This document shows, in pieces, positions 8,283 through 56,661 of a DNA stretch of 64,000 bases. Position numbers and translations under genes: made by a program. The stretch comes from an uncultured Gammaproteobacteria bacterium (GTDB lineage: Bacteria; Patescibacteriota; Microgenomatia; Daviesbacterales; UBA10151). The first letter of the stretch is position 1. Every line of letters begins with the position of its first letter. The notes under the pieces are model-generated. The model searched no databases and had not been told where the DNA came from. It worked only from the letters and a program-made list of their open reading frames with translations. Where the stretch lies: contig CAYUPO010000007.1 in the NCBI GenBank assembly GCA_964446685.1, positions 233-64,232 on the forward strand, given 5' to 3'.

Positions 8283-8284
8283 AA

Positions 8285-17001: not shown

Positions 17002-18753
17002 TTACTGTTTAGTTACAACATAGAAAATTGGAGCACCTTGTGGATTTACAACGGTCTTTAATACTTTTACTCCTGATGGTGGAGTTTTACTCCAATCCCA
17101 ATCCCCTTCAACTTCATCCCTGGCAGCCATCAGATATAAATATCCGGGCTTCAAAAATTCCTGTACACTAAATGGTTTATCAGTATTGCCAAAATAATAC
17201 TTGCCGTCAAAAATAAATCCATTAAATCCTTCTACAACGTTCTTCTGTGATTTTAAATTATCAAACTGAGATTGAATTCTGGCAGGATCAGCTTTGGTCC
17301 ACATCAGATATCTATTTAAAGATGGTTCATAGGTATTATTAAAGAATACTTTCTCGTATTCACTCTGATGTTCTGCCACATACTGCATAGCTTCTTTAAA
17401 CCCAACATGCCACCATCTCCAGGATTCCACCGGATAATGCTGGTAATACCTGTGAAAATAAAATGTGGTATTAAACACAAATAAAATACCTACCAGACCC
17501 AGTAGACTAACAAAACCCCATCTTTGTTTATCCCGTAAACTCAAAACCTGATTTATCAAAAAAACTAATCCCAAAGCATTTAATATTACTAAAGGCGGCA
17601 GCATAATAAACATCCTGGTGGCATGATATCCGCCATCAGCTGTTAAAGAACCTGGTATTGGGGATAAAATAAGCCAGCCAAAGACCAGAAACATGACTTT
17701 CCGCTCTCCTCGGAAAATCAAAAACCAAACTCCTATTGCCAGCAAAATTATCTCAAAATAATATAACTCCCCCATCTCATGAATTGATTGTCTGAAATTA
17801 ATATCCCCTTCCGCAAACAAAAAATTAAGTGACAAAGCTTTCAGATAATTGGTTGAAAAAACCTGCAGATAAACAGTCGGCCGGTTATGAAAATAATTTT
17901 CGGATGAGACATCATTTGTTTTATATTCACCATCCGGAGTAAAGTATCCCAAATTTTTGCGAGCTAGATTGATCTTATCCACCAAAACAGTATCCGTAAA
18001 AATACTGATTCCGGAAAATCTATTAGTTGCCTGACCAGAAAAAATCGACAAAGCCACACCAGAGATAATCACCAATCCGATCAGAAAACTACTAATTAAC
18101 CACCTTGCCCCAATTGTTTTAAAGACTGATTTATTATTCAGATAAATTCCACCAAGCAATACAAGTAAAAGCGGCACAAAAGCCGCAGCAGTTGAATATA
18201 CATAAAAAGAAGCACTAAAGAGTATCGCTGCCACTACTAAAAAATAGCCTTTCTTAAACCCAACCAAAGTAAAATATGTCGCAAAAAGCAAAAAAGACAG
18301 TAGCATTGTCACTTCAAAAGAGGCTCTTGAATACTGCAAATGCCAGGGAGATATCGCCATCAAAAACATTGCAGCAAGTGCTGTTGGAATATTAAATAAT
18401 TTTCTGGTTAATAAAAAAATCCCTATCAAAGAAACCAGACCCCAAAAAACAGCCGGCAACCTAACACCCCATTCATTAAGCCCAAAAACACCAACAAAAG
18501 GAACTGCTGAGTAAATATAAAGTGAAGCCCGGTATTCAGTCAGAGATTTTAAATAAAGCGGCATGCTCCTGCCACTAATATCTTTACCGGTTGTTAAAAG
18601 TGAATAAGCCTGATACCCAACATCAACTTCATCACCAAATAACGCGGGTGGTACAGTATCCAAATGGTAAACCCGCAAAAATGTACCCAGCACCAAAATA
18701 AACAAAATTGCGGTAATTGTTAAATACAGTTTTGAAAAAGCACTCATTGCCAT
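17002..18753 (-). CDS. GT-C glycosyltransferase, PMT_2/GT39 family; paralog 6
   Basis: 583 aa. GDEVDVGYQAYSLLTTGKDISG...LTEYRASLYIY. Confidence 0.75.
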   Translation of the reverse strand: MAMSAFSKLYLTITAILFILVLGTFLRVYHLDTVPPALFGDEVDVGYQAYSLLTTGKDISGRSMPLYLKSLTEYRASLYIYSAVPFVGVFGLNEWGVRLPAVFWGLVSLIGIFLLTRKLFNIPTALAAMFLMAISPWHLQYSRASFEVTMLLSFLLFATYFTLVGFKKGYFLVVAAILFSASFYVYSTAAAFVPLLLVLLGGIYLNNKSVFKTIGARWLISSFLIGLVIISGVALSIFSGQATNRFSGISIFTDTVLVDKINLARKNLGYFTPDGEYKTNDVSSENYFHNRPTVYLQVFSTNYLKALSLNFLFAEGDINFRQSIHEMGELYYFEIILLAIGVWFLIFRGERKVMFLVFGWLILSPIPGSLTADGGYHATRMFIMLPPLVILNALGLVFLINQVLSLRDKQRWGFVSLLGLVGILFVFNTTFYFHRYYQHYPVESWRWWHVGFKEAMQYVAEHQSEYEKVFFNNTYEPSLNRYLMWTKADPARIQSQFDNLKSQKNVVEGFNGFIFDGKYYFGNTDKPFSVQEFLKPGYLYLMAARDEVEGDWDWSKTPPSGVKVLKTVVNPQGAPIFYVVTKQ

Positions 18754-20042
18754 TTAAAAAGTTTCTCCCTTTTTTCCTGATCCAGTAATTCTTTCAGAAA
18801 AACAATATAGTTGTAAACCAGTAAAACAGCATACCCCACCACCAACCAGGTCAAAAAGATATTTGATTTAGTTAGTTCCAGAATAACCGGAATTCCCGGC
18901 TGAAATAATCCTCTATACAAATTGATAAAGTGCAGAAAAGTAAAATAAACCAGATTTATCCAATGAATCTTTTTAAAACAAACTAAAACAGTGGCAAAAA
19001 GAACCACCGGAATCATATATCTCTCATGCATCCTGGTAAAAAAGAAAAAATAAAACCCGGACACTAAAAACAGATAATAAAACAGCTGATAATAATTTGT
19101 CTTTTTAATAAAATAAATCAAACTAAGCGGTGCTATAAAGCTCAAAAACAATAAATATCCCCATAGATCAAATGACAAACCTAAATATTTTTGGTTGGAT
19201 GATAATATTTCATAATTTGAAAAAGTCCCCCACATATTTAAAGCATTTTCAGCTACACCAAAATCAACTAAAGTAAAATTTGAATAATAAAACTGCAGCG
19301 GCCAGATCAGAGAAAAAGAATGAAATGGCAGATATGATAGATACAAAATAATTAATGAAACAGCAATTGATTTAAGACTGTTTTTTAATCCAAACTCTTT
19401 AAAAATATAAAAAATATACACTCCCCATAAAAGTAAAATTGTATGTTTTGTCATCAATGCCACACCAGCAAAAATAAATGACCACCACAACTTTTTATTT
19501 ATCAAAAAACCAAAGGCTAGTAATAGCAACAAATTTTGCAGTAAATCCGTCTGTCCCCAAACTGAGGACACATAAATAACTGCCGGATTTAGTAGCAAAA
19601 ACAACGCAATAATATATCTATTTTTAACTAATAACTTTTCTTTAGTTTTTTTTAAAATTAATGGCAAAACAGCTGCAAATAAAATAGTCGCAATAAGTCC
19701 CGGCAGTTTTAGAAAGGAGATTAAAGTATTTTCCCATTCCATACCAAAAACCAATCGTGAAGGGAAAAAGCTAATTGACGAATTTAGCCAATAGACAGCA
19801 CTTAGACTAATCTGATAAATCCACAAGCTTCCGGCGAAAGCATACATTGTTAAAGGCGGATATGTGGGAAATGAAAAACCAGGAAATCGTCTCTCAAAAA
19901 AATCCACACTTCCATAATCTAAAATACTTCTTCCCCAAACGACATGATTTTTCACATCTCCGGAATATATCGGCAGAGAAATATAAAAATATATCACAAA
20001 GGAAATAACTAAAAACAAACTAAATAATATTTTTTTAATCAT
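18744..20042 (-). CDS. Polytopic membrane protein, DUF2029/GT87-like putative GT-C glycosyltransferase
   Basis: 432 aa. The ...NPAVIYVSSVWGQTDLL motif is shared with 28750..30123 and 20057..21328. Confidence 0.55.
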   Translation of the reverse strand: MIKKILFSLFLVISFVIYFYISLPIYSGDVKNHVVWGRSILDYGSVDFFERRFPGFSFPTYPPLTMYAFAGSLWIYQISLSAVYWLNSSISFFPSRLVFGMEWENTLISFLKLPGLIATILFAAVLPLILKKTKEKLLVKNRYIIALFLLLNPAVIYVSSVWGQTDLLQNLLLLLAFGFLINKKLWWSFIFAGVALMTKHTILLLWGVYIFYIFKEFGLKNSLKSIAVSLIILYLSYLPFHSFSLIWPLQFYYSNFTLVDFGVAENALNMWGTFSNYEILSSNQKYLGLSFDLWGYLLFLSFIAPLSLIYFIKKTNYYQLFYYLFLVSGFYFFFFTRMHERYMIPVVLFATVLVCFKKIHWINLVYFTFLHFINLYRGLFQPGIPVILELTKSNIFLTWLVVGYAVLLVYNYIVFLKELLDQEKREKLFKWQ

Positions 20043-25983: not shown

Positions 25984-26889
25984 TCAACTGGACAGCTTGT
26001 TTTTTATCTTTTGCAAAGTCCGCTTTATTGGATTTTTAGAAAGATTGGAATATTTAAACCAATATGTCAGCTCTTCTCCCTGCTCTTTCATTACATTTAC
26101 AACCTCTTCATATCCCAGCTGCTTTTTTTCAAACTGAGAAGCTTCCCAGACTTTTAACATCATCACTAAATGAGAAAAAGCCTGCAGAAAAGACAGAGCC
26201 AGACCGTGCAATCCATCTTCAAACCCACGATGGGCAAAATAACGGCTCATAAATTCACTGACTGGTTTCTTGATGACATCTTTCCAGTCAAACTGATAAC
26301 CATCATTTCTCATCTCCCGGGCTTGGACATCAGTATATCTATTCATCCTGGCAATAAACTGACCCACCGTTGTGTAATGATGATGATTTATCGCCCATCT
26401 TTCCTCAGCAGATAGTGTTAGACCCTGACCAGTCGTTTTTGGCTTACTATGAATTTTATTACTCCAACTGACATAATCTTTTTTGAAAAATCGAATATTA
26501 TAATCTGGCCACCATCCGGCAGCTTTCATCCATTTACCAAAAATCAGGTTTTTTCTGGGAACTTCAACATGTGTTACTACCCCATTCTTTTTGATAATAT
26601 CTTTAAATCTTTCTTCCAAAGTGTCCGGAATCTCTTCATCAGCATCCACCACTAGGATCCATTCATGACTTGCCTTGGAAATGGCAAAATTTCTGGCAGG
26701 CTCGACAAAACCGGTTTTTTTATGAAAAAAGACTATCGCACCAAGTTTTTTAGCAATCAGAGCGGTATCATCTTCTGAATGCATATCACAGACTAATATT
26801 TCATCTGCCCATAAAACACTTTTTATCGCCCTTTCAATATGCGAGGCTTCATTATAGGTATTAATAACAACCGAAATTTTTCCAGTCAT
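25984..26889 (-). CDS. Glycosyltransferase family 2 with C-terminal extension
   Basis: ISVVINTYNEASHI...ILVCDMHSEDDT...LVVDADEEIPDTL. Third member of this GT2 paralog set. Confidence 0.75.
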   Translation of the reverse strand: MTGKISVVINTYNEASHIERAIKSVLWADEILVCDMHSEDDTALIAKKLGAIVFFHKKTGFVEPARNFAISKASHEWILVVDADEEIPDTLEERFKDIIKKNGVVTHVEVPRKNLIFGKWMKAAGWWPDYNIRFFKKDYVSWSNKIHSKPKTTGQGLTLSAEERWAINHHHYTTVGQFIARMNRYTDVQAREMRNDGYQFDWKDVIKKPVSEFMSRYFAHRGFEDGLHGLALSFLQAFSHLVMMLKVWEASQFEKKQLGYEEVVNVMKEQGEELTYWFKYSNLSKNPIKRTLQKIKNKLSS

Positions 26890-27042: not shown

Positions 27043-28716
27043 GTGTTTAAACTTAGTAAGATACTTAAGATGAGTCACTTAACCCAGAAAAAAGCTTTGT
27101 TCATTATTGCTCTGATCATTATTTTACTAAGCGGTTTAATCCGCGTAGGACAAGTCATCAACTACAACTTCCCATTTACCACTGACCAGGCCAGGGATAT
27201 GTTGGATTTAAGAAATATCGTTGTTGGTATCAACCCAACACTTGTCGGTCCAACTACCTCTATTAATGGTGTATTTTTAGGCCCAGGGTATTATTATTTT
27301 AATGTAATTCCATTCTTCTTAGGACAAGGGGACCCTTCTTACCTTGTTTACTGGAATATTTTATTTTATCTAATTGCGGCACTGGTAATACTTATAGCGC
27401 ATTATAAAAAAGAAGTTTCTTTTGGCTTTTTCGGATCAATAATTTTTATAATGGCACCTGGTTTTTTTCAACCTACCCGTTATTTCTGGAATGCCAACTC
27501 AATGCCATATTTTTCATTATTTTATTTTATCTCATTAGCTTTTTTTCTTTTACAGCCAAGTGCTAAGAAAGCCTTTTTAGTTGGTCTTTTAGCGGGAGTC
27601 GGTATGCAGTTTGAAGCAGCATTTGGAGTATTATTTTTACCATTTGCGCTGCTCTCTACCGCTATTAAAAAAGCTGGTTGGCGCAACGCGGGTATTCAGT
27701 TATTAAGTTTTGGAATTACACTGATACCGCAAATTTTATTTGATCTAAAGAACAATTTTGCGATGTCAAAATTATTCATTGCCGAACTTTCCGGACATGG
27801 TACAGTTTTAGGAGAAAAACTGACATTTGTTGAGTCAGTAGTCAGTCATTTTAATAGTTTTATTTTATTTTCCCATGGAAACCTAGCTCTGCCTTTTAAT
27901 TTAGGATCTGTAATATTAATCGGATCACTCTTTTTCTTAGGATTAAAACTTTATCAAAAGAAATTAGACCCTGTTTTAAAAATCTATACTTTAATGAGCG
28001 CAGGGTTTTTACTTTTTGCTTTCATAGTTTATCTGATCTATCTACATGACTTAAAAGATTGGTATATTTATAGTCTTCGCTTACCCTACCTTTTCATACT
28101 AACAGCTTTTTTCTCATCTGTTTACCAGCACACACTGGATTATGATAGAACTTTTTTGAGTATTAATTTTAAGAAACTAAAACATCTACCGCAAACAACA
28201 GTAATTGTAGTGATATTAATTTCGGTTTTTTTCTCTTATCTTGACCAAAAACAGTTTATTCATACTGATGTCTCTTTTCGTTCAGATGATAAAAGTAATT
28301 TAAAAAATACAATCGAAGCTGTCGACTGGGTATACACCCATCTTGAAGGAAAAGGGTTTAAAGCCTACAACTATATTCCTTCGGTATATGACTTCCCCTA
28401 TCAATATGTTTACTGGTGGCATGGCACGAAAAAATACGGTTATCAACCTGAAACAATTAGCTACAAAGAAGGAGTACCCGAATATATTCCTCTTAATACA
28501 ACTTTTCTAACTAAAACCAAGCCGCAGGAAGACAATTTAATCGCCATGATCTATGAAGATGATGGTATGACAGACCGGATATTTGCCTGGGGCGGTGACT
28601 TTACCAAATACTGCAGGGTAACTGATATTAAATATCGTTGGGGAACAACAGCCGAGATCAGAAGGCTCTGTCAACCAGGAGAAGATTCACCCAGACTCGA
28701 ACCTGCCAGAAAATAA
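27043..28716 (+). CDS. GT-C membrane glycosyltransferase, ArnT/PMT_2-like
   Basis: 557 aa. TDQARDMLDLRNIVVG..LVGPTTSINGVFLGPGYYY motif, shared with 42169..43677. Confidence 0.6.
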   Translation: MFKLSKILKMSHLTQKKALFIIALIIILLSGLIRVGQVINYNFPFTTDQARDMLDLRNIVVGINPTLVGPTTSINGVFLGPGYYYFNVIPFFLGQGDPSYLVYWNILFYLIAALVILIAHYKKEVSFGFFGSIIFIMAPGFFQPTRYFWNANSMPYFSLFYFISLAFFLLQPSAKKAFLVGLLAGVGMQFEAAFGVLFLPFALLSTAIKKAGWRNAGIQLLSFGITLIPQILFDLKNNFAMSKLFIAELSGHGTVLGEKLTFVESVVSHFNSFILFSHGNLALPFNLGSVILIGSLFFLGLKLYQKKLDPVLKIYTLMSAGFLLFAFIVYLIYLHDLKDWYIYSLRLPYLFILTAFFSSVYQHTLDYDRTFLSINFKKLKHLPQTTVIVVILISVFFSYLDQKQFIHTDVSFRSDDKSNLKNTIEAVDWVYTHLEGKGFKAYNYIPSVYDFPYQYVYWWHGTKKYGYQPETISYKEGVPEYIPLNTTFLTKTKPQEDNLIAMIYEDDGMTDRIFAWGGDFTKYCRVTDIKYRWGTTAEIRRLCQPGEDSPRLEPARK

Positions 28717-28749: not shown

Positions 28750-30123
28750 TTATTTACTAATTTTTAGGTACTTCTTAATATCTGCCACAAAAGTAGAACC
28801 GGTAATTTTTAAAAATATCAAAAAAGTATAAACATTTATACCGGATAAAATTCTGGTAACAGTATGATCATTCCAGATTAACAATTGCCTTAAATAATCC
28901 CATGTCCGGGGGAACCACCAGCCATGATACAAATTCAACCAAAAAACACTACTCATGATCAGCCAGTATTTCAAATACCCCGGGTAATAAATCAAACACA
29001 TCAGGGAAAAAACAATACCGGCAAAGAAATATCTTTCCAACATATTAGTCATAAACAACCAGCTACCAAGTCCAACAATAGCAAAGGCAGTTAAAACATT
29101 TTTCTGATTAATTTTGACCGAAAATTTAAATGCCAGGAAGTTGACTACCAGATAAGATAACCATCCCCAAATATAAGCTGGAACAAGCAAAAAGGTCTCA
29201 AAATGCTCTTTTGGATGATCACCTATTAATATATGCCAGAAATTAAAGGAATTGGTTGAAACTCTAAACCCTGCCTTAAAGAAAACCTTATTTTTCAGAT
29301 CATAATATATAAAGTGAAGCAGATTATCATTTGTAAACAAAGCTACTGTAATTAACCCTCCAATGACTGCCAGTATAATCCCTCCGATATATTCCAAGTA
29401 ATGTTTTTTTAATCTGAAATAAAGCCATAAAAAAAGTGGGATAAAGATAATTGAAGTAGGTTTTAAACTAATAGAGATCATCAGTAAAAACGGCGCAATA
29501 AAGACATTCTTTCTTATAAGCGCCCAAACTGATACAAGCAAAAACAAAAAGCTTAACTGATCATATTGTCCCCATAAAGCCGAAATATAAAAACTAAAAG
29601 GAGAAAAAAGATATAACCCACTTATCAGCAGAGCTTTTTTTAAATCTTCTTTTATCAGCATCAAAAATATTACCAGACCAATCAATAAATCCCCGACAAT
29701 TGCGATGAATTTGATTGACAGGAAAAAACCCAGCTTCAGATATGATTCAGTATACTGAGCATCGGTGTACCATCTGACAAAATCAAAATACCAAAGCATA
29801 TAAGTTGGAGCCAAATGCGGAACCACATAATGAGCAATATTTCTAAACAACTCCAATGAATTTAAATAGAGCCAAAAACTGGCAGCATAAACTAAATTTA
29901 CTAACGGAGGCTGTGTCGGCCAGGCATATACCCAGGTGGAATTTGAATAAAATTGTTTGGTGCCATTATTATAAATCCACTCTCCCCAATAGGCCTGTGA
30001 CAGGATATCTATATGGTAAAAAAGAGGCGATAAAACAAGTCGTAAAATAAATGCCAGTAATAACATCAGCAGCAGATGAAAATAATTATTTTTAAGTAGT
30101 TTTAGAGAAAATAATTTAATCAT
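28750..30123 (-). CDS. Polytopic membrane protein, DUF2029/GT87-like putative GT-C glycosyltransferase
   Basis: 457 aa. SPFSFYISALWGQYDQL motif; paralog of 18744..20042. Confidence 0.55.
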   Translation of the reverse strand: MIKLFSLKLLKNNYFHLLLMLLLAFILRLVLSPLFYHIDILSQAYWGEWIYNNGTKQFYSNSTWVYAWPTQPPLVNLVYAASFWLYLNSLELFRNIAHYVVPHLAPTYMLWYFDFVRWYTDAQYTESYLKLGFFLSIKFIAIVGDLLIGLVIFLMLIKEDLKKALLISGLYLFSPFSFYISALWGQYDQLSFLFLLVSVWALIRKNVFIAPFLLMISISLKPTSIIFIPLFLWLYFRLKKHYLEYIGGIILAVIGGLITVALFTNDNLLHFIYYDLKNKVFFKAGFRVSTNSFNFWHILIGDHPKEHFETFLLVPAYIWGWLSYLVVNFLAFKFSVKINQKNVLTAFAIVGLGSWLFMTNMLERYFFAGIVFSLMCLIYYPGYLKYWLIMSSVFWLNLYHGWWFPRTWDYLRQLLIWNDHTVTRILSGINVYTFLIFLKITGSTFVADIKKYLKISK

Positions 30124-33100
30124 TTTACTTTATATATAACCACTTCATCATTTTCGAAAAGCTTTTCTATTCCGACTTTACCTTCATCAAGTAAACCGGT
30201 TGTTTTTTTAGGAAGATAAATATAGCTGATATTATTGTCACTTAACAGTTGATGTGAATTGATTGTTCCTTTAAGTATTTCTCTGGTTGTATTAACTCTG
30301 GCTTTATAATCAATCCCTAAAATATCCAAATTAATTGAGTCAGCTAAGAATGATGGTTTGCCTGAAAAAGCACTGACATATGATGTAGAAGCATATGCAA
30401 ATAATGGTTTCGGTGCAACATATTTTTTAGTCAGCTTTTCCTCAAACACTGGCGACAAAACAATTCCGTCAGGAGCACTGGCTAACTGTTTTAAGGCAAC
30501 TGCTTCCTGGGTGGACAATTTAGCTGGCGGTCTTTTAGGCAGATACTGACTAAGCGTATTTAGACTAGTAGGAATTGTTAAAATAACTACTATGGCAAGT
30601 GTACTCCAGGTCAACAGTTTTGGAATTCTAGTTACAGATCCAATCACCAGTCCGGCAAAAACAGCCTGAATCATCAAAGTATAGTAAAAGAACTGAACTA
30701 TATTCCATCCTGTCCCTTCCTGCAAAAACAGTAAAGCCAAAATCAGACCTAATCCACTAAGAAGCGAAAGCAATCCAAACCGCAGAAAAATTTTAGGATT
30801 TAAAAAAGCAATTGCCCGAAAACCCAGATTACCAATTATAAACAAAACAATTCCTATACCATATGCTGCGATAACTTTATACCAGACACCTGACTGCATC
30901 GTCATCAGTAATCTCACCCACCCCAATCTATCTTCTGATTCAACCATTGTCCTGACCAGCCATAATGGAGAAAATGTTATCAGCTGATTACTACCTGCGT
31001 TATTAGGCAGAAAAACCAGTAAAGAAAGCGCCAAAGTTAATCCGGCAACAACCACAAACAAAAACTGTTTTTGGAATATTTTAAAAACTGTGATTATTCC
31101 TAAAGATCCAAGCATTAAGATCCCGGCATAAGCCTTAAATTCAATCAAAACTCCCCACACCAAAACAATTAACAGCCCTTTTTCTAAAACCTCCTTTTTC
31201 TTACTAAAATCAGTGGAATAATAAAGATATATTCCGGCAAACAAAAGCACTAGTGAAATGGCAAACGGCGGATTAAGCAAAGTTGAAACAGATTGTTGAG
31301 CCCAAAAAGTTGTTTCACCACCAAAACTACGATCCTTAAAAAACGATACTATCCAGCCAAAACTACCTCCAAAATAAACAAAAAACAAAGCCACCAACCC
31401 CGCGAGTTTTGCTCTGGCATCAGAAAAAGCCATCTTTTGTCCTAATAACAGCGTTAGATGATATACCAAAAGTCCCAGTGAGATACTAATTAGAAGCGGA
31501 AAGAATCTAAACAAGACATTCTGTGGATCAATACTAAACATTAAAACAGCTTTGGCAGCCAAAAGATCAAAGAAATAATGGTAATTCTCCAGAGGTTGAC
31601 CTGAAAAAACAAAATTTTGAGGAGGCACACTTTTTGTTAAGGCATTGATCAGCTGCAGATGCCAGATAGCGTCATGACCATTTGGACCCCAATAACCAAA
31701 GCCGTAATTAAATAACAAACCATTTTTAAGCTGAGTCAACATCCAGCTTAAGGAACCAACAACAATCAAACCCCAGACAATCAGTGAGTTTTTTTCAATG
31801 TATATTTTTGGTAATTCATTTTTCCACCAAAAACCGGCAGCTACAGCAACAAGTGGAACAAGCCAAAGTAGAAAACCTAACTCAATTACAGACAATAAAA
31901 ATGCCAGTAAAGTAAAAACAGCTATGCCAACAGGTAACGCTAATAACAATCTTTTAGACAAAACAAATCCGGGTATAATCAAAAATAAAATCACAAATAC
32001 TAAAAATTTAAATCCATCCAGCAGCAGCCCTGGTAAGATTTGTGACCACTCAACTTTGGATATGAAATCTTTTTCATCCTGATTAACAATTGTATTGGTA
32101 TTTTGAGAGCTCTCTACAGCATTTAAAATGGCTGTGGAAATTGTTTTAATATCATCATCTACTTTTATGTCATTAGCTAAAAAAGAAATCTTTCTAATCA
32201 GACCGGCACCATTCTTATACTGAATATTCAATGCTTCATTTGTTTGGCTAACCTGATAATCAGTTACTTTCCCTTCATCCAACACCCATCTTGTACCAAA
32301 ATTCACTTCATCAATCGCCTGATTGGCACTAAAACCAAGCTTTAAGGCCTCGCAGGCAGCTTTCAGACATGCTTCCTCTACTCCGTCATTAAATTGCCGC
32401 AAGTCCCTGACTATAACTCCTTCATTGTTTACAAACAGTCCCACCCGGTATTTTTCTGTTTGGTACCAAACCACTTTTCCATCACTTCCCAAAGGATCAT
32501 CCGATGAAATTAATACTTTGGGAGATAATTTAGGATTAGCTAATTTATATGCCTGAGCGAAGTGCTGCATTGTTACGACCCGGACATTTTGTGTCTGTAG
32601 ATTTGCCACGTGTTCTACCTGTTTGCTGTATTCAGCACCAAATTTATTCCAGTCAAAATCATTTTCCAGTCCTACAACCACCTGAGGATACGGCAAAATC
32701 AGTTTCTTAAAATAATCAATTCCCAAATCATGCAGCAGATAGTCATTAGACTGTACAGAATAAGTGCTTTCAAAAACGCTGTTACCATATCCATTAAACG
32801 GGTCACGTCCCGCCCATTGGATTGTAGTAATTCCAATTTTTTCTCCTTCTGAAGATGCTGGCATTAATGCGTTTCTTTTGCTTGGATAAAATGGTGAAGA
32901 CCAGTATTGTCCCCAGACTTGGTAACCATCAGTTGAAAATTGGTCCGAAACATCCATATTTACTTCGACCTGGTACTTATCATGCAGATACTGCAAAGAA
33001 TTAGCATCAATCCACCAGGCACCTACAGACTTGGGGTTATTACCAAAAACCTCTTTATATCTTCCCATCACGGTATCAATTAACTTAATTCTGTCATCTG

Positions 33101-33485
33101 GTGAATAACCGGTCACCAAAACTGATTTAGCAAAATGCCAGTTGGCACTTTGGTTGTACTGCACTCCGGCATCTGTTGTCAGAGTTGGAGTAACTTCCAA
33201 AAAAATACCTGTTTCCTGTTTTGAGTTAAGAGTTTTTAGAAATGAAACAACTTCCGGATTCTTTAATGCATCATATCTGACAAGCCAGGTCGCCTCTAAA
33301 TTATTTTTATTTATCACTTCCGATTGTTTCTTAGGAGTATCCAAAATCCCATACGGATACTCCCAAAAATCCTGTCCCCGGATTGGATTCACAATTGTAA
33401 TCTGTTTTTGTTCCTGGGCAAAAACAGCTGGAACAAAACAATTTATCCCAACAAACAAGGCTAAAATAAGTAAAAATTTATGCAT
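30120..33485 (-). CDS. 1121-aa multidomain membrane protein: signal peptide, ~480-aa extracytoplasmic domain (possible carbohydrate-active or deacetylase-like fold), ~12-TM GT-C-like core, and a C-terminal extracytoplasmic domain
   Basis: N-terminal MHKFLLILALFVGINCFVPAVFAQE signal peptide. The long soluble domain is rich in W, Y and D (WWIDANSLQYLHDKYQVEVNMDVSDQF...). The central ~500 aa contain many hydrophobic helices. Confidence 0.6.
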   Translation of the reverse strand: MHKFLLILALFVGINCFVPAVFAQEQKQITIVNPIRGQDFWEYPYGILDTPKKQSEVINKNNLEATWLVRYDALKNPEVVSFLKTLNSKQETGIFLEVTPTLTTDAGVQYNQSANWHFAKSVLVTGYSPDDRIKLIDTVMGRYKEVFGNNPKSVGAWWIDANSLQYLHDKYQVEVNMDVSDQFSTDGYQVWGQYWSSPFYPSKRNALMPASSEGEKIGITTIQWAGRDPFNGYGNSVFESTYSVQSNDYLLHDLGIDYFKKLILPYPQVVVGLENDFDWNKFGAEYSKQVEHVANLQTQNVRVVTMQHFAQAYKLANPKLSPKVLISSDDPLGSDGKVVWYQTEKYRVGLFVNNEGVIVRDLRQFNDGVEEACLKAACEALKLGFSANQAIDEVNFGTRWVLDEGKVTDYQVSQTNEALNIQYKNGAGLIRKISFLANDIKVDDDIKTISTAILNAVESSQNTNTIVNQDEKDFISKVEWSQILPGLLLDGFKFLVFVILFLIIPGFVLSKRLLLALPVGIAVFTLLAFLLSVIELGFLLWLVPLVAVAAGFWWKNELPKIYIEKNSLIVWGLIVVGSLSWMLTQLKNGLLFNYGFGYWGPNGHDAIWHLQLINALTKSVPPQNFVFSGQPLENYHYFFDLLAAKAVLMFSIDPQNVLFRFFPLLISISLGLLVYHLTLLLGQKMAFSDARAKLAGLVALFFVYFGGSFGWIVSFFKDRSFGGETTFWAQQSVSTLLNPPFAISLVLLFAGIYLYYSTDFSKKKEVLEKGLLIVLVWGVLIEFKAYAGILMLGSLGIITVFKIFQKQFLFVVVAGLTLALSLLVFLPNNAGSNQLITFSPLWLVRTMVESEDRLGWVRLLMTMQSGVWYKVIAAYGIGIVLFIIGNLGFRAIAFLNPKIFLRFGLLSLLSGLGLILALLFLQEGTGWNIVQFFYYTLMIQAVFAGLVIGSVTRIPKLLTWSTLAIVVILTIPTSLNTLSQYLPKRPPAKLSTQEAVALKQLASAPDGIVLSPVFEEKLTKKYVAPKPLFAYASTSYVSAFSGKPSFLADSINLDILGIDYKARVNTTREILKGTINSHQLLSDNNISYIYLPKKTTGLLDEGKVGIEKLFENDEVVIYKVK

Positions 33486-34932
33486 TTCTCATTGATTTAA
33501 GATTTAATAATACTTTTTCTCTGGCCAACAAAAACATAAATAATATATAAACTAATCCACCTATAGCCACCGTAACAAGTAGTGATACAAAATCAACCAC
33601 CAGACTCTGGGCAACAAAAAAAGTAACAATAGCCATCACAAAAGACGCCAAAACGGTCTGCCAGATATTTTCCCAAACGGCAATATTAATAGTCCTTTTA
33701 ATGATCATAATTGGAATAATAGATGTAAATGCAATTAATGCTGAAGCATAGCCAACACCAATAAATCCATAATAATAAGTTAGTACCGGCGTTATCACCC
33801 ATTCCAAAGTAGTCCACATAATCATTAATTTTAAGGTAATTCCAATTTTACCGATTGCATTCAAAAAATTGGTAAACGGTGTTGATAATGTGGCCCAAAA
33901 AGCCGTAATTGAGAATAAATAAACCATTGGCAAAGCTGGCTGCCATTTACTGGATACCACATGAGCAACCAGACTCGGTACTATCGCTATCAGTCCAAAA
34001 AGCATCGGATAAAGCATTAGACCGGTTAAAAAAACCGTTCTTTCCAGAGTTCTTTTTAAAGCCTCTTTATCATCCTGTAAGCGGGAAAAGGCCGGAAAAG
34101 AAATCCTGGTCATAATATTCATGACTTCAAGCGCCATAAAAGCCATTGATTGTCCCCAGGTAATGTAACCCACCCCCAATGTGCCAACCATTCTGGCAAT
34201 AACTAAAGGAACCAATCGGTCTTTTAATAATGCCAACAGAGAATTAGCCTGAAAAGGTAATCCGAAATTGATTAATGATCTGGCCGACTCTTTGGAAAAA
34301 CCCAGACTTATATTCCAGGGAGACACTAAATAAATAATGGCAACACCAATAATTCCTCTCGCTAAAACTCCCCAGGCAAAAGCTGAAACTCCTGCTCCGT
34401 TAAAGCTTAACCAAACTAAAATACTGTTAAAAACAGCAGTTTCAGCTATTTCAACCCAGACTAATTTGCCAAAGTTAAGTTCTCTTTCCAATAAAACAGA
34501 GGGAATGACTTTTAACGAAGATAAAAAAAACCCTGCAGCTAAAGCCCGAATCAACCACATTCCATGATTATCTAATTGATAAAACTGAGCCAGTTGGGGA
34601 GCAAAAATAATGAGTACTGTTGAAATAATTAGTGCTAAAATCTGTTGAATTGTAAAGGTGGTTTTTAAATCATTTTGATGAATTTCTTTTTTCTGTATTA
34701 AAGCTGCTGCCAGTCCGATATCCGAAAAATAAGTAAAAAAAGCTAAAATAGAATTTGCTACATTAAAAATCCCAATTGTCGAAACAGGTAAAATCCTAGC
34801 TAATACAATGTTAATCGTGACAAAATTAATTGCCAAAAGTGCTGCCTTACGAAAAGTTAATGTTAAAAACCCGGAAAAAAGTTTTTTATTCACATAGGCT
34901 AAAGAAGTTTTATTATTTTCCTGAGTCTCCAT
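33478..34932 (-). CDS. Wzx-like polysaccharide flippase (Polysacc_synt, MOP superfamily)
   Basis: 484 aa, about 12-14 TM segments; ...ARILPVSTIGIFNVANSILAFFTYFSDIGLAAALIQ matches the Wzx N-terminal consensus. Confidence 0.7.
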   Translation of the reverse strand: METQENNKTSLAYVNKKLFSGFLTLTFRKAALLAINFVTINIVLARILPVSTIGIFNVANSILAFFTYFSDIGLAAALIQKKEIHQNDLKTTFTIQQILALIISTVLIIFAPQLAQFYQLDNHGMWLIRALAAGFFLSSLKVIPSVLLERELNFGKLVWVEIAETAVFNSILVWLSFNGAGVSAFAWGVLARGIIGVAIIYLVSPWNISLGFSKESARSLINFGLPFQANSLLALLKDRLVPLVIARMVGTLGVGYITWGQSMAFMALEVMNIMTRISFPAFSRLQDDKEALKRTLERTVFLTGLMLYPMLFGLIAIVPSLVAHVVSSKWQPALPMVYLFSITAFWATLSTPFTNFLNAIGKIGITLKLMIMWTTLEWVITPVLTYYYGFIGVGYASALIAFTSIIPIMIIKRTINIAVWENIWQTVLASFVMAIVTFFVAQSLVVDFVSLLVTVAIGGLVYILFMFLLAREKVLLNLKSMRNA

Positions 34933-34933
34933 A

Positions 34934-36670
34934 TTAATTAATGATCCTTTTTCTTAATTTAGGAAAGAAACTCATTCCCGCAACAATGGTCAAAGCCAAC
35001 AATGTCACCAAATTTGAAATTATTCTTACTGGCGTATTAAAAAGCTTTCCCGTAACGGAATATTCACCTGGCGGCAGATCTATTCTGAGTCTTCCCCAAT
35101 GATTTTCATCAGTGTGAGGATATTCTTTTCCGTCAACAAAAACTTTCCAGATTGGATATTCAATAATTGGAATCTCAACATTTGCAGTTTCTGCGACTTT
35201 AATCTTAAAACTAAAAGTATCTGATTCCACTTTGTAATCTTGTGTTTCAGCCTTGCCGCTCCTGATCTCTGGCGAATAAGGAGCTCTTCCCTGAGGTTCA
35301 TAATAGGCCGCTTTAGGCAAATAATCTAAAAGTCCCGCCTTTTGTTGAATCTCCCACAAAGGATCGGATAACTTTTGCTGATCATCAATCCAGGGGTAAA
35401 AATCTTTAGGAATAAAAAACTGGTAATTAAGGAAAAAAGTAAGCAGTGATAAGATACTAGCCATAATTAACTGCAGTTTTTTCGGTAGGGAAAATATAAA
35501 AAATCCACCAATTATACTGGAAGTAAAAATAGCGATCGACAAAAATCTCCAGGGAAATTGAGCAAACTGAATCGGTCTGACTGCTTCCCAGAAAAATGCC
35601 GACTTGTTATGCATTAAAATAAGCGACAAACCGAACAAAAAAATAAATCCAGCTGCCAGTACAGTTTCCGTTTTTTTGAGACTGGAAAACTTTTTCAACA
35701 TTAACCAAATTAATACTCCAACACCCGCTATCACCACCCACCAATGAGGCCAGCCGATCTGAAAAGAGATCGTATCCCCATTTCCAAAAACACTGGCACC
35801 ATAATCCCATTTCCTGTCAAAAAAAAGCTGTGGAACAGTCACAAAATGAGCTCTAAAGTCACTCCCCCCTTCCAACAATGTATCTGTTCGAACCAGATCT
35901 TTTTCCAGAAAAACCGGAAAGACAAAAAAAGCTGCCAGTCCAACTCCCAGTAATCCGGCCAACACCACACTATTTATTTTCTTAATACTTAATACTTGAT
36001 ACTTAATACTTAGTATTACTATCCATATTGCCAATATCGGAATAAAAAACATCGTCATGATGTTATGGCACATCAAAAATAACCCTAGTGAAATACTGGT
36101 ACCCAAAAAATTTCCCCAGGTTTTTTGTTTAATTAATCGCAGAAAATAATAAAAAACAAATGGAATAACAGCCAAGGCAAAACTTTCGGCAATCGCCCCT
36201 CTGACATAGCCATCCAAAGCTCTGTAAGGAGCAAACTGATACATCACACCAGCTGTAAAACCGGCCCAGTCTCCATACAGCTCTCTCACCAGCCAATACA
36301 TACCAAATCCACCGATTAAAAGCGGAATAAAAAATAACAATTTAGCAGCTCCGACAAACCCTAAAATATAACTGGCTATTCCTCCTATATAGTAAGGAAG
36401 TACGCTGTAATAATTAAACAGCGGATAACCATTTCCATACCCCATATCAGGAACCCATCTGCATGGTATCTGTCCGGTATCAAAACATTTTCTCATTTCA
36501 AATATCCGCATCACCTGTAAATCATCATGATGAAAGAAATAACCAGGCATCAAAGTTGGCCATAAGATAAATCCGGAAAGTACCAGTAAAATCAGTAAAT
36601 GCCAATAAACTAATGAAATATTTTTAAATTTACTTAGCATCTTTTCTCCTTTTAAATTCATTCCATCCAA
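34934..36670 (-). CDS. Polytopic membrane protein of an uncharacterised GT-C-like family (HHDD..IPCRWVPDMGY motif); paralog A
   Basis: 578 aa. N-terminal FFHHDDLQVMRIFEMRKCFDTGQIPCRWVPDMGYGNGYPLFNYY, then a C-terminal soluble domain. Confidence 0.55.
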   Translation of the reverse strand: MDGMNLKGEKMLSKFKNISLVYWHLLILLVLSGFILWPTLMPGYFFHHDDLQVMRIFEMRKCFDTGQIPCRWVPDMGYGNGYPLFNYYSVLPYYIGGIASYILGFVGAAKLLFFIPLLIGGFGMYWLVRELYGDWAGFTAGVMYQFAPYRALDGYVRGAIAESFALAVIPFVFYYFLRLIKQKTWGNFLGTSISLGLFLMCHNIMTMFFIPILAIWIVILSIKYQVLSIKKINSVVLAGLLGVGLAAFFVFPVFLEKDLVRTDTLLEGGSDFRAHFVTVPQLFFDRKWDYGASVFGNGDTISFQIGWPHWWVVIAGVGVLIWLMLKKFSSLKKTETVLAAGFIFLFGLSLILMHNKSAFFWEAVRPIQFAQFPWRFLSIAIFTSSIIGGFFIFSLPKKLQLIMASILSLLTFFLNYQFFIPKDFYPWIDDQQKLSDPLWEIQQKAGLLDYLPKAAYYEPQGRAPYSPEIRSGKAETQDYKVESDTFSFKIKVAETANVEIPIIEYPIWKVFVDGKEYPHTDENHWGRLRIDLPPGEYSVTGKLFNTPVRIISNLVTLLALTIVAGMSFFPKLRKRIIN

Positions 36671-38318
36671 GTAAAGAAATAATAACCAACGCTACTAAAG
36701 TTGATATATTACCCACTGTCCTAACCGGAGTGTTATCCAGGTGAACATTAATCTGATAATTGCCAACGGGTAAATCAAAACTAATAAGTCCCAGGCAAAA
36801 CTCCTGTCCTCTGCAATCATCATGCCAGTGAGCAATTTTCATTTTTTCCGAAGTTTCAAGATTAGTCGCCGTTACCGCCATACCAGGAAAGTCAAACAAT
36901 GGCAGTCTAAAATTAGCATTTTCGGAAACTCTAATCTGACCATTTTGCCAGTCACTGCCTTTATACCAACTTAAAATTTCCGCTTTACCGTCCATAATTT
37001 CCGGTTTATCCGGAGCTTTTTGGATTGGTGGCAATTTGGCATAAATAGGCAAATAATCAAAAATACTGATTGTTAATTGCTTATCCCATGATTTACCGGA
37101 AAACTTTTGAGTATCATCGATCCTGACCCAATCATGCCCTTTGAAAAACGAACCATACAGTATTAACACTCCAGCAATGACAATAATTCCCAAAACATAT
37201 TCTGCATGAATTAATTTAAATAGTTTAAGTTTAATATCCTGTACAAAAAATACAGCAACTCCTGAAAGCAGCGATAACATAAAAACACTGTCAGACAAAA
37301 ACCTCCAGGGAAACTGCAGATATGCCAGAAAAGGCAATTGAGCCCAAATAAAGGAGGATTTCTGATGAATCATGAAAAGGACAAAAATAGTGACAGTAAA
37401 TAACACCAAAGTCACTATCGCAATCTTAGTATGTTTTCTAAACTGAACCAATGCTAAAAATGCCGCAACAAGTGCCATAATAAAATGAATTTGTCCGGTT
37501 GATAAAGACATGCCATCCCATGGTCCCCAGACACTTGATCCATATCCCCAATAATTGGAAACAAATAACTGATTTAAATCAGCAAAATGCATCCGGTAGT
37601 CAAAGTACCCACCGATTATTGTTTCTAGATGTACAAATGGTCTTTCTACAATGACGGGAAAGATAAAAAACCCGGCCAGTAAAATACCCAATACTCCATA
37701 CCCAAACAGCCATCCAAGTAATTTCAACCTTTTTTCTAAAATAAGCCACATCAGCCCCCAGATTCCGGCCAGTGGCAAAAAAATCAAAGGCATTAAGTTG
37801 TGAGTCATAATTAGTCCACCGACAGATAAAGCTAAAAATAAACCATATTTCTTCTGTCTGGTTTTAATAAACTGATAGATTGACCAAAAAATAAATGGAT
37901 AAAAACTCATCGCCCAGTATTCACTCATTGCTCCTCTGACATAGACATTTGCCGCCTTATAGGGAGCGTAAGTGTATAAGACAGCGGCTACCACTGCCGG
38001 CCACTTACCTAGCCAGGTTTTAATAAAAAGATACATTCCAAAAGCTCCGACTACAAAACCCAAACCAAACATTATTTTTGTCACATCAATAAACTGAAAT
38101 CCTAATAAATGAAAAATTTGTCCCAAATAATAAGGACTTGGCGGATAAAAATTAAATTGAGGGTAGCCATACTGATATCCCATATCGGGAATCCATCTGC
38201 AGGGAATCTGAAAATCCTGAAAACATTTATTCATCTCAAGCATCCTAAATGCCTGAATATCATCATGCATCGAATAAAGTCCACTCTGAAATAAATTAAT
38301 AAATGAAGGAACAATCAA
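36630..38318 (-). CDS. Polytopic membrane protein of the same IPCRW(V/I)PDMGY family; paralog B
   Basis: 562 aa. MHDDIQAFRMLEMNKCFQDFQIPCRWIPDMGYQYGYPQFNFY. Overlaps paralog A by 41 bp; A's true start is probably a downstream Met. Confidence 0.55.
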   Translation of the reverse strand: MIVPSFINLFQSGLYSMHDDIQAFRMLEMNKCFQDFQIPCRWIPDMGYQYGYPQFNFYPPSPYYLGQIFHLLGFQFIDVTKIMFGLGFVVGAFGMYLFIKTWLGKWPAVVAAVLYTYAPYKAANVYVRGAMSEYWAMSFYPFIFWSIYQFIKTRQKKYGLFLALSVGGLIMTHNLMPLIFLPLAGIWGLMWLILEKRLKLLGWLFGYGVLGILLAGFFIFPVIVERPFVHLETIIGGYFDYRMHFADLNQLFVSNYWGYGSSVWGPWDGMSLSTGQIHFIMALVAAFLALVQFRKHTKIAIVTLVLFTVTIFVLFMIHQKSSFIWAQLPFLAYLQFPWRFLSDSVFMLSLLSGVAVFFVQDIKLKLFKLIHAEYVLGIIVIAGVLILYGSFFKGHDWVRIDDTQKFSGKSWDKQLTISIFDYLPIYAKLPPIQKAPDKPEIMDGKAEILSWYKGSDWQNGQIRVSENANFRLPLFDFPGMAVTATNLETSEKMKIAHWHDDCRGQEFCLGLISFDLPVGNYQINVHLDNTPVRTVGNISTLVALVIISLLGWNEFKRRKDAK

Positions 38319-41390: not shown

Positions 41391-42149
41391 TTAGCGATGA
41401 AAACCGTTGTAAGAACCGGTTAAATCATTAATCCGGATTTTTAACATGTCCTGCAATGCATCAAGCGAATCTCTGATAGCCTGAACTCTTTCTGTTCCTA
41501 CATAGTGCCACTCAACACCCACTTCAGCAATTTTTAAATCCATTTTCTTAGCCAAAAAAAGTGTTTCAACATCAAACCCGGCATTCACCGCTGCTCCATT
41601 TAGCCGATGTTTATGCCATCTTTTCAGAAGCGGCTGAAAAACCATTTCAATTGCTTGACGGTTAAAAGCTTTAAAACCACACTGTGTATCTTTAAATGGC
41701 AAACCCAGAAGCAAAGTTCTAAGCAAAGCAAAGCCCCAGGCCATCAGCTTACGAATTGCCGGTGCCCCTTTTCTACCCGTCCGGGATCCAATCACAATGT
41801 CATAGCCATTCCCAAATTCCTTTAACAACTTTTCAATTTCAGCTAAAGGAGTTGCCTGATCCATATCTGTAAATAAGGCAATTCTACCCCGACTTTCAAG
41901 CATTCCTGTCATTACCGCAATTGCTTTCCCACCATGATTGTTTCTGATCAACCGGTAATTTTTTTTGGAAGAAATAAACTTTTCGATCAATTCAACACTC
42001 TTATCTTTAGAACCATCATCAACTATCAAAACCTCATAAGTATAAGCCTGTTTATCTAAATAGGAATCAACATCATTCAAAACACCATTTTTCAGATTTT
42101 CTTCTTCGTTATAGGCAGGAATGATAACCGAAAGTTTGGGCTGATCCAT
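41391..42149 (-). CDS. GT2 polyprenyl-phosphate sugar synthase (ArnC/DPM1/GtrB-like)
   Basis: 252 aa. LSVIIPAYNEEENL...LIVDDGSKDKSVELI. Sits immediately upstream of an ArnT-like GT-C, the canonical donor-synthase/transferase pairing. Confidence 0.75.
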   Translation of the reverse strand: MDQPKLSVIIPAYNEEENLKNGVLNDVDSYLDKQAYTYEVLIVDDGSKDKSVELIEKFISSKKNYRLIRNNHGGKAIAVMTGMLESRGRIALFTDMDQATPLAEIEKLLKEFGNGYDIVIGSRTGRKGAPAIRKLMAWGFALLRTLLLGLPFKDTQCGFKAFNRQAIEMVFQPLLKRWHKHRLNGAAVNAGFDVETLFLAKKMDLKIAEVGVEWHYVGTERVQAIRDSLDALQDMLKIRINDLTGSYNGFHR

Positions 42150-43788: not shown

Positions 43789-44502
43789 TTATGATTTCCT
43801 AAAGTTTAACTCTTTCCATAATTTCATCAAGTCCAGAAAACTTTTGAAAACCACTGACAAATTTGCTCCTGTTGGTACTCCGTGAATTCGCGGATAGTGA
43901 TGAACTCCTACCTCAGCGAATTTATATCCTTTTAATTTAGCTTTAATCAACATTTCGATCTGAGTCACTTTCTCTTCCGAATTAATCGGCAAAATACCCT
44001 CAAAGACCTCTTTTTTTATCATTTTAAAACCGCATGAATAATCTCTGACATTTAAACCTAAAACAATCATCGCCAGCATCTTCCATCCCCAGGTAAAAAT
44101 TCGTCTTTGAAAAGGATCAGCTCTGTTTAAACGGTATCCTAAAATAACATCAGCTTCATCTGTTTTGTCCAGCATTTTTTTTACTTCAGCAAATTTAAAC
44201 TGACCATCTGAATCAGCAAAAACAACCCAGGAATATTTAGCTTCTGTGAAACCCGTTTTAAGTGCCCGACCATAGCCTTTGTTTCCCTGATGATTAATTA
44301 ACCTGACTTCCGGATACTTCTGAGTAAGTTTTCCGACTTCTTCAGCAGTCCCATCTTTTGATCCATCATTTATCACCAAAATCTCCCACTCCAGCGGTAA
44401 AGATTTTAAAACTAATACAGCATCCTCAACTGTCGAGTTGATGTTTTTCTCTTCATTAAAAGCGGGGAAAAAAACAGAAAGTGACTTTATCATATCAGAC
44501 AA
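43789..44502 (-). CDS. GT2 polyprenyl-phosphate sugar synthase (DPM1/GtrB-like)
   Basis: 237 aa. LSVFFPAFNEEKNI...LVINDGSKDGTAEEV...FADSDGQF. Confidence 0.75.
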   Translation of the reverse strand: MSDMIKSLSVFFPAFNEEKNINSTVEDAVLVLKSLPLEWEILVINDGSKDGTAEEVGKLTQKYPEVRLINHQGNKGYGRALKTGFTEAKYSWVVFADSDGQFKFAEVKKMLDKTDEADVILGYRLNRADPFQRRIFTWGWKMLAMIVLGLNVRDYSCGFKMIKKEVFEGILPINSEEKVTQIEMLIKAKLKGYKFAEVGVHHYPRIHGVPTGANLSVVFKSFLDLMKLWKELNFRKS

Positions 44503-49778: not shown

Positions 49779-49964
49779 ATGCCTCGTCTTCAAATACTTG
49801 GATTAGTAATTATCATTTGTTCTGTATTAGTACTCGGTATACAGTTGGGACCACTAGCAAATGGCGAAATAACTTTGGCTGAATATTTTAAAGCGACCTG
49901 GCCTAGCCTTATACCGTTAGCAATTGGAATTTCAATAATTTCGGGCAAGTTTAAGAAGAGTTAA
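49779..49964 (+). CDS. Small two-TM membrane protein (hypothetical)
   Basis: 61 aa with two hydrophobic helices; starts 9 bp after the gmd stop. Confidence 0.3.
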   Translation: MPRLQILGLVIIICSVLVLGIQLGPLANGEITLAEYFKATWPSLIPLAIGISIISGKFKKS

Positions 49965-50842: not shown

Positions 50843-50869
50843 ATTTTATATCTAATTTCTACACATTAC

Positions 50870-51653: not shown

Positions 51654-51748
51654 ATTAATAATGTAATTCTCGACTTCGCTCGAATAATATTTATTGTTCG
51701 ACCTTGTAAGCAAAGCTTGCCTGTTGGCTATAGCCAACACTTGGAGAA

Positions 51749-56635: not shown

Positions 56636-56661
56636 AACTAAACAATCCGACATGAACCAAA

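Follow-up and report, generated by a model that had tools for sequence, protein, structure and literature searches.

A DUF3863-type domain fused to a divergent GT-C core beside a Wzx flippase gene in Daviesbacteria-like Microgenomates

Introduction

Systems composed of a GT-A enzyme, a Wzx-type flippase (GacK) and a GT-C enzyme (GacL) have been documented, and it has been proposed in the same review that small GT-Cs may require a separate acceptor-binding protein (PMC8035078). A DxD-like motif is usual in an extracellular loop of GT-Cs (PMC8035078), and the proposed catalytic Asp of the solved GT-Cs comes after the first transmembrane (TM) helix (PMC11127046). Here we describe a gene of 1121 codons located in a 64,000-nucleotide (nt) stretch of DNA (hereafter the window; contig CAYUPO010000007.1 of assembly GCA_964446685.1, positions 233 to 64,232, G+C ~36% over its whole length), which joins a secreted N-terminal domain (N-domain), a membrane core and a C-terminal domain (C-domain) in one chain. 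In this protein a divergent member of DUF3863 is combined with a GT-C family not represented in Pfam. Our preferred reading, to which we give a probability of roughly 0.65, is that it acts as the membrane glycosyltransferase of a flippase-coupled module for glycosylation outside the membrane in a Daviesbacteria-like Microgenomates bacterium, and that it has captured a partner domain which processes or binds glycans.

The locus resembles the GacI/J-GacK-GacL system of Streptococcus pyogenes (PMC8035078) in linking a polytopic GT-C, acting at the outer face, to a Wzx/MOP flippase and a GT2 enzyme, in the remote homology of its core to PMT_2, the family of GacL, and in the presence of dTDP-rhamnose genes in the same gene island. 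However, no PMT_2 model of Pfam recognises the core, its GT2 partner does not resemble ArnC/GacI, and the large N-terminal extracytoplasmic domain has no counterpart in GacL. With the ArnT/PMT_2-type enzymes (5f15, 5ezm) the fused protein shares the fold, profile homology, a small periplasmic domain at the C-terminus and a conserved acidic residue within the first outer loop; it differs from them by three added N-terminal TM helices and a 450-residue N-terminal domain, and it stays below all Pfam thresholds. The best Foldseek matches of the core are STT3, PglB and AglB (8pn9, 8agb, 3rce, 3wak; ~640–700 columns), the GT66 oligosaccharyltransferases (OSTs), which are also alike in the Wzx-like supply of a flipped lipid-linked glycan and in having a C-terminal outside domain. 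In contrast to them, the fused protein lacks WWDYG, has no STT3 Pfam match and has a C-domain of only 142 amino acids (aa). The mycobacterial GT-Cs AftD and EmbA-C likewise have large soluble domains on the outside, which are believed to keep the acceptor polymer in place (PMC8035078), and AftA is among the fold matches of our core. Unlike theirs, the extra domain described here lies at the N-terminus, after a signal peptide, and is a barrel of enzyme fold. The extra domains of AftD and EmbA-C are C-terminal or loop-inserted lectin-like modules.

Within the literature searched, the coverage of which is incomplete, we found no account of a GT-C that carries an extracytoplasmic domain of enzyme fold at its N-terminus, nor anything relevant on GT-C in Patescibacteria. 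These bacteria, also referred to as the candidate phyla radiation (CPR), live attached to host cells, and to our knowledge their surface glycans are essentially unstudied.

Overall architecture and topology

The layout of the protein was derived from Kyte-Doolittle hydropathy and two AlphaFold2 models, one covering aa 1–490 (pLDDT 85.1, pTM 0.83) and the other aa 481–1121 (pLDDT 87.4, pTM 0.90), and is given in Table 1. The open reading frame (ORF) runs from ATG to stop. A putative signal peptide, probably cleaved after A23 (VFA followed by Q), precedes the N-domain (aa 24–~470), which consists of a barrel and a beta-sandwich. The barrel part is moderately rich in aromatic residues (13.4% F+W+Y), in agreement with the initial annotation, which had described a signal peptide and an aromatic-rich extracytoplasmic domain. 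A linker (aa 471–483) leads from the sandwich to the membrane region, where 14 helices are found in aa 484–975. Three of these are additional to the GT-C fold (about aa 484–510, 513–533 and 537–554) and 11 are canonical (aa 567–975). The GT-C-like core with ~12 TM helices predicted earlier is thus upheld by Foldseek as to its fold, as described below, but not as to its helix count, while the further soluble C-terminal domain, predicted at ~150 aa, is present with 142 aa and is extracytoplasmic by topology. Flagellin matches in the Pfam and NCBIfam scans of the protein were weak (E 0.02–0.08) and were dismissed as chance.

In the model, canonical TM1 (aa 567–585) is followed by a 68-residue first extracytoplasmic loop (EL1) with two short helices. 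Since the extra helices are odd in number, an N-domain located outside can be joined to a TM1 that enters the membrane on the cytoplasmic side and leaves it on the outer side, and the model accordingly shows the three helices returning the chain to the cytoplasm ahead of TM1. When the N-domain, EL1 and the C-domain are placed outside, hydropathy and model make all the short loops rich in Lys and Arg (K/R) cytoplasmic, namely SKR (aa 510–512), WWKNELPKIYIEK (aa 554–566), QKMAFSDARAK, FSKKKEVLEK, FKIFQKQ, RAIAFLNPKIFLR and VTRIPK. The mature protein contains only two Cys residues, C373 and C378, which are invariant in an alignment of 40 close homologues. Confinement of this pair to the sandwich of the N-domain fits an extracytoplasmic location. 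By the model and the K/R rule, the N-domain, the C-domain and the conserved loops are all predicted to face outward, and a cytoplasmic N-domain, which had been named as a possible objection to the fusion, is not what the loop distribution and the model indicate.

Table 1. Features of the fused gene and its neighbours (nt positions in the window)
Feature	Position	Strand	Basis
Whole ORF, 1121 aa + stop	30120..33485	-	ORF listing; homologues cover ~100% of query; same one-ORF architecture in 32 loci
Putative signal peptide, aa 1–23, MHKFLLILALFVGINCFVPAVFA then Q	33417..33485	-	Hydrophobic peak aa 4–22; -1 A, -3 V
N-domain part 1, aa 24–320, DUF3863-like (beta/alpha)7 barrel	32526..33416	-	Model, Foldseek, profile
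N-domain part 2, aa 321–470, beta-sandwich	32076..32525	-	DSSP strands aa 324–448; 3lm3 alignment
Linker and three extra TM helices	31809..32075	-	Model helices, hydropathy, K/R distribution
GT-C fold core, aa 560–979, 11 TM helices	30549..31808	-	Foldseek; hhalign against PMT_2 paralogues
EL1, aa 586–653	31527..31730	-	Model; conservation in core alignment
C-terminal extracytoplasmic alpha/beta domain, aa 980–1121	30123..30548	-	Model; conservation
Wzx/MOP flippase gene	33478..34932	-	PF13440 4e-57; MOP flippase NCBIfam model
457-aa polytopic membrane protein	28750..30123	-	ORF; syntenic in L003, L004, L015, L024
Soluble GT2 glycosyltransferase	25984..26889	-	PF00535; usual downstream partner of core in most loci
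Two PTPS_related (PF10131) polytopic membrane proteins	34934..38318	-	Pfam; upstream of Wzx in most loci

The membrane core is a divergent GT-C

All ten PDB structures matched by the core in Foldseek at E <=2e-3 are GT-C enzymes (probability 1.00), eight of them reaching E <=1e-3, and the first match of another kind follows at E 0.06. Among them are human STT3 (8pn9_A, 6e-6), yeast STT3 (8agb_A, 7e-6), PglB (3rce_A, 2.5e-5), AglB (3wak, 3.6e-5), ArnT (5f15, 2e-4) and AftA (8if8_C, 5e-4). At the level of sequence, an alignment of 48 diverse cores (29–49% identical to the one studied here) was compared by hhalign with an alignment of ten PMT_2 paralogues encoded in the window. This gave a probability of 96% (E 4e-9) over 410 columns, beginning at TM1 and ending where the C-domain begins, and suggests that the core is remotely homologous to these paralogues. 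There was no match when the family was compared with one single PMT_2 paralogue, and PTPS_related gave no significant match to the core (probability 11.6%). The PMT_2 and PMT models of Pfam (PF13231 and PF02366) find nothing in the fused protein at E<0.1, match 2 of 40 homologues weakly (PMT) and match none of the 48 core sequences; the STT3 model (PF02516) has no match in any of these three sets. Relatives that consist of the core without an N-domain begin at about query aa 555–577. Judged by profile comparison and model, the core is a divergent glycosyltransferase family of GT-C_A type, outside PMT_2 and STT3 as those are defined. It represents a large unannotated GT-C family which is missed by Pfam and by PDB sequence searches.

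EL1 carries the motif G-P-N-G-H604-D605-x-x-W-H609, followed by N634-Y-H636. Residues invariant across the 48 core sequences are G589, D605, Y635, H636, F727, W728, N738, K784, F882, G885, N886, Q922, N928, Q931 and, in the C-domain, D1049. On the model many of the conserved positions lie at the outer face: D605, Y635 and H636 in EL1, F727, W728 and N738 in the second such loop (EL2), K784 at the outer end of TM5, and Q922, N928 and Q931 in the last outer loop. E724 (EL2) and D852/R853 (loop after TM7), which are at least 90% conserved, are found there as well. D605 (codon at nt 31671–31673), located at the start of the first short EL1 helix in the model, is invariant in the 40 close homologues as well as in the 48 diverse sequences, and would be the obvious candidate for the catalytic base. 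Its motif is H-D, in place of the D-E or DxD of the ArnT/PMT_2-type enzymes. From the profile comparison it is plausible that the DE of PMT_2 is equivalent to H604-D605.

The N-domain belongs with DUF3863

The top Foldseek match of the N-domain is 3lm3 (E 3.2e-15, 434 aligned columns, TM-score 0.54/0.60), which is BDI_3119 of Parabacteroides distasonis, a 'putative glycoside hydrolase/deacetylase' likewise built of a barrel and a C-terminal beta-sandwich, into which the alignment extends. It is followed by CE4 enzymes (HP0310, 3qbu, 7e-8; 3rxz; PdaC, 6h8l), GH57 and GH38. A profile of 31 diverse N-domain sequences has 3lm3_A as its sole match in the PDB (E 1.1e-8), while single-sequence searches and the profile of the 40 close homologues yielded marginal PDB matches only. 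PF12979 is weakly matched by 13 of the 40 homologues (best 2e-4) and is below Pfam detection for the fused protein alone. By fold and profile, the N-domain is a divergent member of DUF3863 (PF12979), and its model falls in the glycoside-hydrolase/deacetylase fold group. It differs from 3lm3, which is soluble and stands alone, also in D181 of an invariant D-Q pair, which is Ser in 3lm3. No functional account of DUF3863, 3LM3 or BDI_3119 was found in the literature searched.

Enzymes with beta/alpha barrels carry their active sites at the C-terminal ends of the strands. The conserved charged residues of our barrel are positioned at or just past these ends (DSSP on the model): R36 on beta1, R70 and D72 on beta2, E97 on beta3, D160 on beta4, D178, D181 and D186 on beta5, R227 and D228 on beta6, and E274 and D276 on beta7. 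R36, E97, D181, D186, R227, D248 and E274 are invariant even in homologues with 33–39% identity to the fused protein. A match of aa 373–468 to low-molecular-weight phosphotyrosine phosphatase was rejected, as it is not significant (E 0.03–0.12) and C-X5-R is absent (C373-LKAAC-E379).

The C-domain, in which E994 is also conserved, contains no Trp, and a WWDYG-type OST motif is therefore excluded. Residues 562–690 of the protein P0217 match aa 990–1121 of the fused protein (E 4e-5), and C-domain matches of a hidden Markov model are present in the loci L052, L081 and L082. These sequence comparisons indicate that the C-domains of the fused protein and of the N-domain proteins without a core are homologous.

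The domains occur as separate, adjacent and fused genes

Our profile search covered 1.84 billion representative proteins and found relatives in 2621 representative clusters at E <=1e-3 (partner domains included) and 1428 at E <=1e-30. The best 120 homologues are 1017–1177 aa long, cover 89–100% of the query at 44–98% identity and, where the source is named, come from Candidatus Daviesbacteria or Patescibacteria. All 78 genome loci belong, where credibly named, to Microgenomates-group CPR bacteria. Many third-party-annotation records of metagenome-assembled genomes among L003–L080 are titled 'uncultured Gammaproteobacteria', 'Pseudomonadales' or 'Clostridia bacterium'; these titles look like placeholders or misassignments, and the gene content and synteny match Daviesbacteria/Microgenomates.

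The gene order PTPS_related(s) - Wzx - (N-domain-)core-C-domain - GT2 - (GT2) - YfhO is conserved with or without the N-domain. In tallies that use an earlier 36/39 grouping of the loci, prior to the recount given below, a Wzx homologue ends <300 nt upstream in 61 of the 65 loci whose upstream sequence is long enough (32/34 with the N-domain and 29/31 with the core only), and a GT2 gene begins <200 nt downstream in 43 of 66 (14/30 and 29/36). The association with Wzx ties the N-domain and the GT-C to a flipped lipid-linked glycan.

By the recount, N-domain and core are encoded in a single uninterrupted ORF at 32 of the 78 loci, mainly in Daviesbacteria and also in Shapirobacteria, and in 5 of these 32 a second, core-only paralogue is present nearby. 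The core and C-domain occur without the N-domain at 38 loci (Woesebacteria, Amesbacteria and others). Two independent genomes (L051, L052) have N-domain and core in two adjacent, separate genes with overlapping ends, in which Wzx is followed by a 687-aa protein consisting of the N-domain, two TM helices and a C-domain, then by a core with its own C-domain (565–568 aa) and by GT2. The three-part protein with two TM helices (N+2TM+C) also occurs in a second conserved cluster, of the order PMT_2 - GT2 - GT4 - PIG-V-like - Wzx - GT2 - N+2TM+C - GT4, so that the N-domain proteins without a core likewise adjoin a Wzx gene. Occurrence of these domains in separate, adjacent and fused form is evidence of a classical kind that the GT-C and the N-domain protein act jointly. 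As a rule this GT-C family has no such N-terminal domain, the presence of which is a lineage-specific addition. The earlier remark that such a domain ahead of a GT-C core is unusual was a fair one, to be qualified by the 38 core-only loci and by the existence of the N-domain as a separate membrane-anchored protein. These gene states fit the proposal of a separate acceptor-binding protein (PMC8035078), and the family provides a natural example for the published idea that small GT-Cs depend on a separate partner for acceptor recognition or processing. They also link the GT-C family to a DUF3863-type domain of solved structure, which offers a concrete, testable hypothesis for both.

The window itself contains a second Wzx cluster (1936–9979, minus strand), consisting of PMT_2 (8285–9979), GT2 (7422–8282), GT4 (6388–7425), PIG-V-like (5160–6413), Wzx (3904–5277), GT2 (3072–3902) and GT4 (1936–3066). 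Its order is identical to that of the clusters with an N+2TM+C gene (L001, L081–L084), minus that gene, and the fused protein has the only N-domain, core or C-domain within the window. Absence of the N+2TM+C gene from this cluster suggests that the fused protein serves in its place.

In some Daviesbacteria (L018 11306–13312, L019 11383–13386) the fused gene is directly followed by a ~668-aa paralogue which has the three extra TM helices, core and C-domain and no N-domain. Some 25 representative clusters with this architecture form a coherent clade. The neighbour-joining tree of the cores has a star-like shape and is in part disturbed by gene fragments, and it was not used for counting fusion events.

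That two or three genes have been merged into the long ORF by an assembly error or a frameshift, the latter being an objection raised with the initial annotation, is extremely improbable. N-domain and core do exist as separate genes elsewhere (L051, L052), and the neighbouring genes overlap, such that a 1-nt error could merge them. However, the best 120 homologues, from independent samples, are nearly all of full length, and together with the 32 loci carrying one unbroken ORF they indicate that the fusion is real and under selection and no sequencing artefact. Moreover, the fused form has three linking TM helices and lacks the C-domain of the first gene, which mere reading through from one gene into the next in the two-gene state would not produce. 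An apparently 'split' gene in L002/L007 (417 + 586 aa) was discarded as evidence, there being runs of N in the contig at that place. A single protein of 1639 aa (P0127) has a Wzx, 40% identical to that of the window, in frame ahead of the entire N-domain-core-C-domain chain; this may represent either a true fusion of flippase and transferase or a 1-nt error at the overlapping junction.

Proposed function and alternatives

The steps of the mechanism that we propose are all inferred from anatomy. Cytoplasmic GT2/GT4 enzymes would build up a sugar or oligosaccharide linked to polyprenyl phosphate as its carrier, the co-translated Wzx flippase would carry the lipid-linked glycan to the outer leaflet, and the GT-C core would bind this donor at the outer face of the membrane, with the invariant K784 and H636 and the conserved D852/R853 as candidate ligands of phosphate or sugar. 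For a polyprenyl-phosphate-linked donor the indications come from context, namely the neighbouring Wzx flippase and GT2 genes. Asp605 would act as the base, and the sugar would pass to a cell-surface acceptor. The C-domain and the N-terminal barrel and sandwich, predicted on the same outer face, might recognise or process the same glycan, for which trimming, transglycosylation or another modification can be envisaged. The coupling of polymer modification or hydrolysis to transfer proposed in the initial annotation is likewise inferred. Probably the N-domain was first a separate membrane-anchored partner protein and was fused later in this lineage.

Several points weigh against this reading. 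The TM-scores of the structural matches of the core are modest (0.35–0.47), and the core is without a sequence match in Pfam, NCBIfam or the PDB (none at E<=10 for the 48-sequence alignment against the PDB). The DE of PMT_2 lies ~10 residues before H604-D605, in a low-confidence region of the hhalign comparison, without exact alignment. The GT2 partner cannot be recognised as a polyprenyl-phosphate sugar synthase and has neither a TM helix nor an NCBIfam match of the ArnC/GtrB/DPM type, unlike the GT2s at 41391–42149 and 43789–44502, no priming phosphoglycosyltransferase is found among the window ORFs scanned, and the N-domain could be a module for binding only. We consider it unlikely that the core, instead of adding monosaccharides in the manner of ArnT or GacL, moves a whole Wzx-flipped polyprenyl-diphosphate oligosaccharide to a protein or polymer as an OST or ligase, or polymerises it in place of Wzy. 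The top structural matches of the core are indeed STT3, PglB and AglB, and a diphosphate oligosaccharide donor is favoured by the Wzx-type partner flippase, by a GT2 partner that resembles oligosaccharide-building GT2s over ArnC/GtrB, and by the absence of any Wzy_C or O-antigen ligase Pfam match among the window ORFs scanned. However, the Foldseek E-values of the OSTs and of ArnT/AftA are less than two orders of magnitude apart, neither a WWDYG-type motif in the Trp-free C-domain nor an STT3 Pfam match speaks for an OST, and the sole link at the sequence level is to the PMT_2/ArnT-like paralogues, which favours a monophosphate monosaccharide donor as in GacL and ArnT. Wzx-type flippases, moreover, serve monosaccharide systems too, such as GacK (PMC8035078).

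As for the N-domain, it is improbable that it is a metal-dependent polysaccharide de-N-acetylase of the CE4 type. CE4 enzymes are second only to 3lm3 among its structural matches, but the N-domain has no invariant His pair and no HxxxH (only H117 is at least 90% conserved in both the close and the diverse alignment), from which it follows that the Asp-His-His metal site of CE4 is absent; in addition, PF01522 is unmatched in the fused protein and the 40 homologues, and the best match is DUF3863, not CE4. The secreted carbohydrate-binding or deacetylase-like domain suggested initially is thus borne out as a barrel of the glycoside-hydrolase/deacetylase type and not as a deacetylase specifically. 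A non-catalytic carbohydrate-binding or scaffold module, which would position the acceptor polymer for the GT-C with no coupled chemistry, is conceivable though rather doubtful. Large GT-Cs are known to bear extracellular carbohydrate-binding domains for the acceptor, a role proposed for those of AftD and Emb, whereas in small GT-Cs a separate protein might be required for binding (PMC8035078); furthermore, no paper showing activity of DUF3863 was found, and the metal triad of CE4 is missing. However, the invariant R36, E97, D181, D186, R227, D248 and E274 at or just past the C-terminal ends of the barrel strands speak for an enzyme, and so do the nearest folds, which are all enzymes. At the other extreme, it can be speculated, with a good deal of caution, that the DUF3863-type barrel is an active glycan-cleaving or transglycosylating enzyme which works in one chain with the GT-C core on the Wzx-delivered glycan, so that cutting or trimming is joined to transfer. 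If true, such a chain could replace the missing Wzy polymerase/ligase step in the assembly of Microgenomates surface glycans, DUF3863 would gain its first function, and the protein would be the founder of a new GT-C (CAZy) family.

The surrounding glycosylation island

The stop of the Wzx gene overlaps the start of the fused gene by 8 nt (ATGCATAA), and the stop of the latter overlaps the start of the 457-aa gene by 4 nt (ATGA). These overlaps indicate translational coupling. The 457-aa protein has no Pfam or NCBIfam match and no PMT_2 similarity. Two membrane-protein genes lie here between the fused gene and the GT2 gene that is its usual neighbour. One of them is the 457-aa gene, and the other encodes a 557-aa polytopic membrane protein (27043–28716, plus strand) without a Pfam match, for which hhalign against the PMT_2 paralogues gives a probability of 82% and places 'TTDQ' on the DE motif; it is probably another divergent GT-C.

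The fused gene is part of a nearly uninterrupted, mostly minus-strand envelope-glycosylation island of ~50 kb (938–53770), a very large outlay for a small CPR genome. Its GT-Cs include ten PMT_2/PMT paralogues above the Pfam gathering score and one weak sub-threshold match, and it also holds two PTPS_related, YfhO, GT87-like and PIG-V-like proteins, two Wzx flippases and many GT2/GT4 enzymes, among which ArnC/PgfS-like GT2s adjoin PMT_2 genes. Sugar genes are represented by GDP-sugar dehydratase/epimerase genes and rmlABCD (49961–53770). Beside the short ArnC/PgfS-like GT2s (41391–42149, 43789–44502) paired with PMT_2 genes is a 394-aa fusion of a GT2 with a GtrA/DPMS transmembrane part (46255–47439, minus strand), which is likely a polyprenyl-phosphate sugar synthase joined to a GtrA-type membrane domain. 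A 432-aa membrane protein (18744–20042, minus strand) has no Pfam match and reaches E 1.5e-5, far below cutoff, with the NCBIfam model for AZOBR_p60025 cell surface glycopolymer formation. Outside the island, the window encodes a secreted CAP/SCP-domain protein (54183–55127) and an export system composed of HlyD, an ABC ATPase and a MacB/FtsX-type permease (55556–58838).

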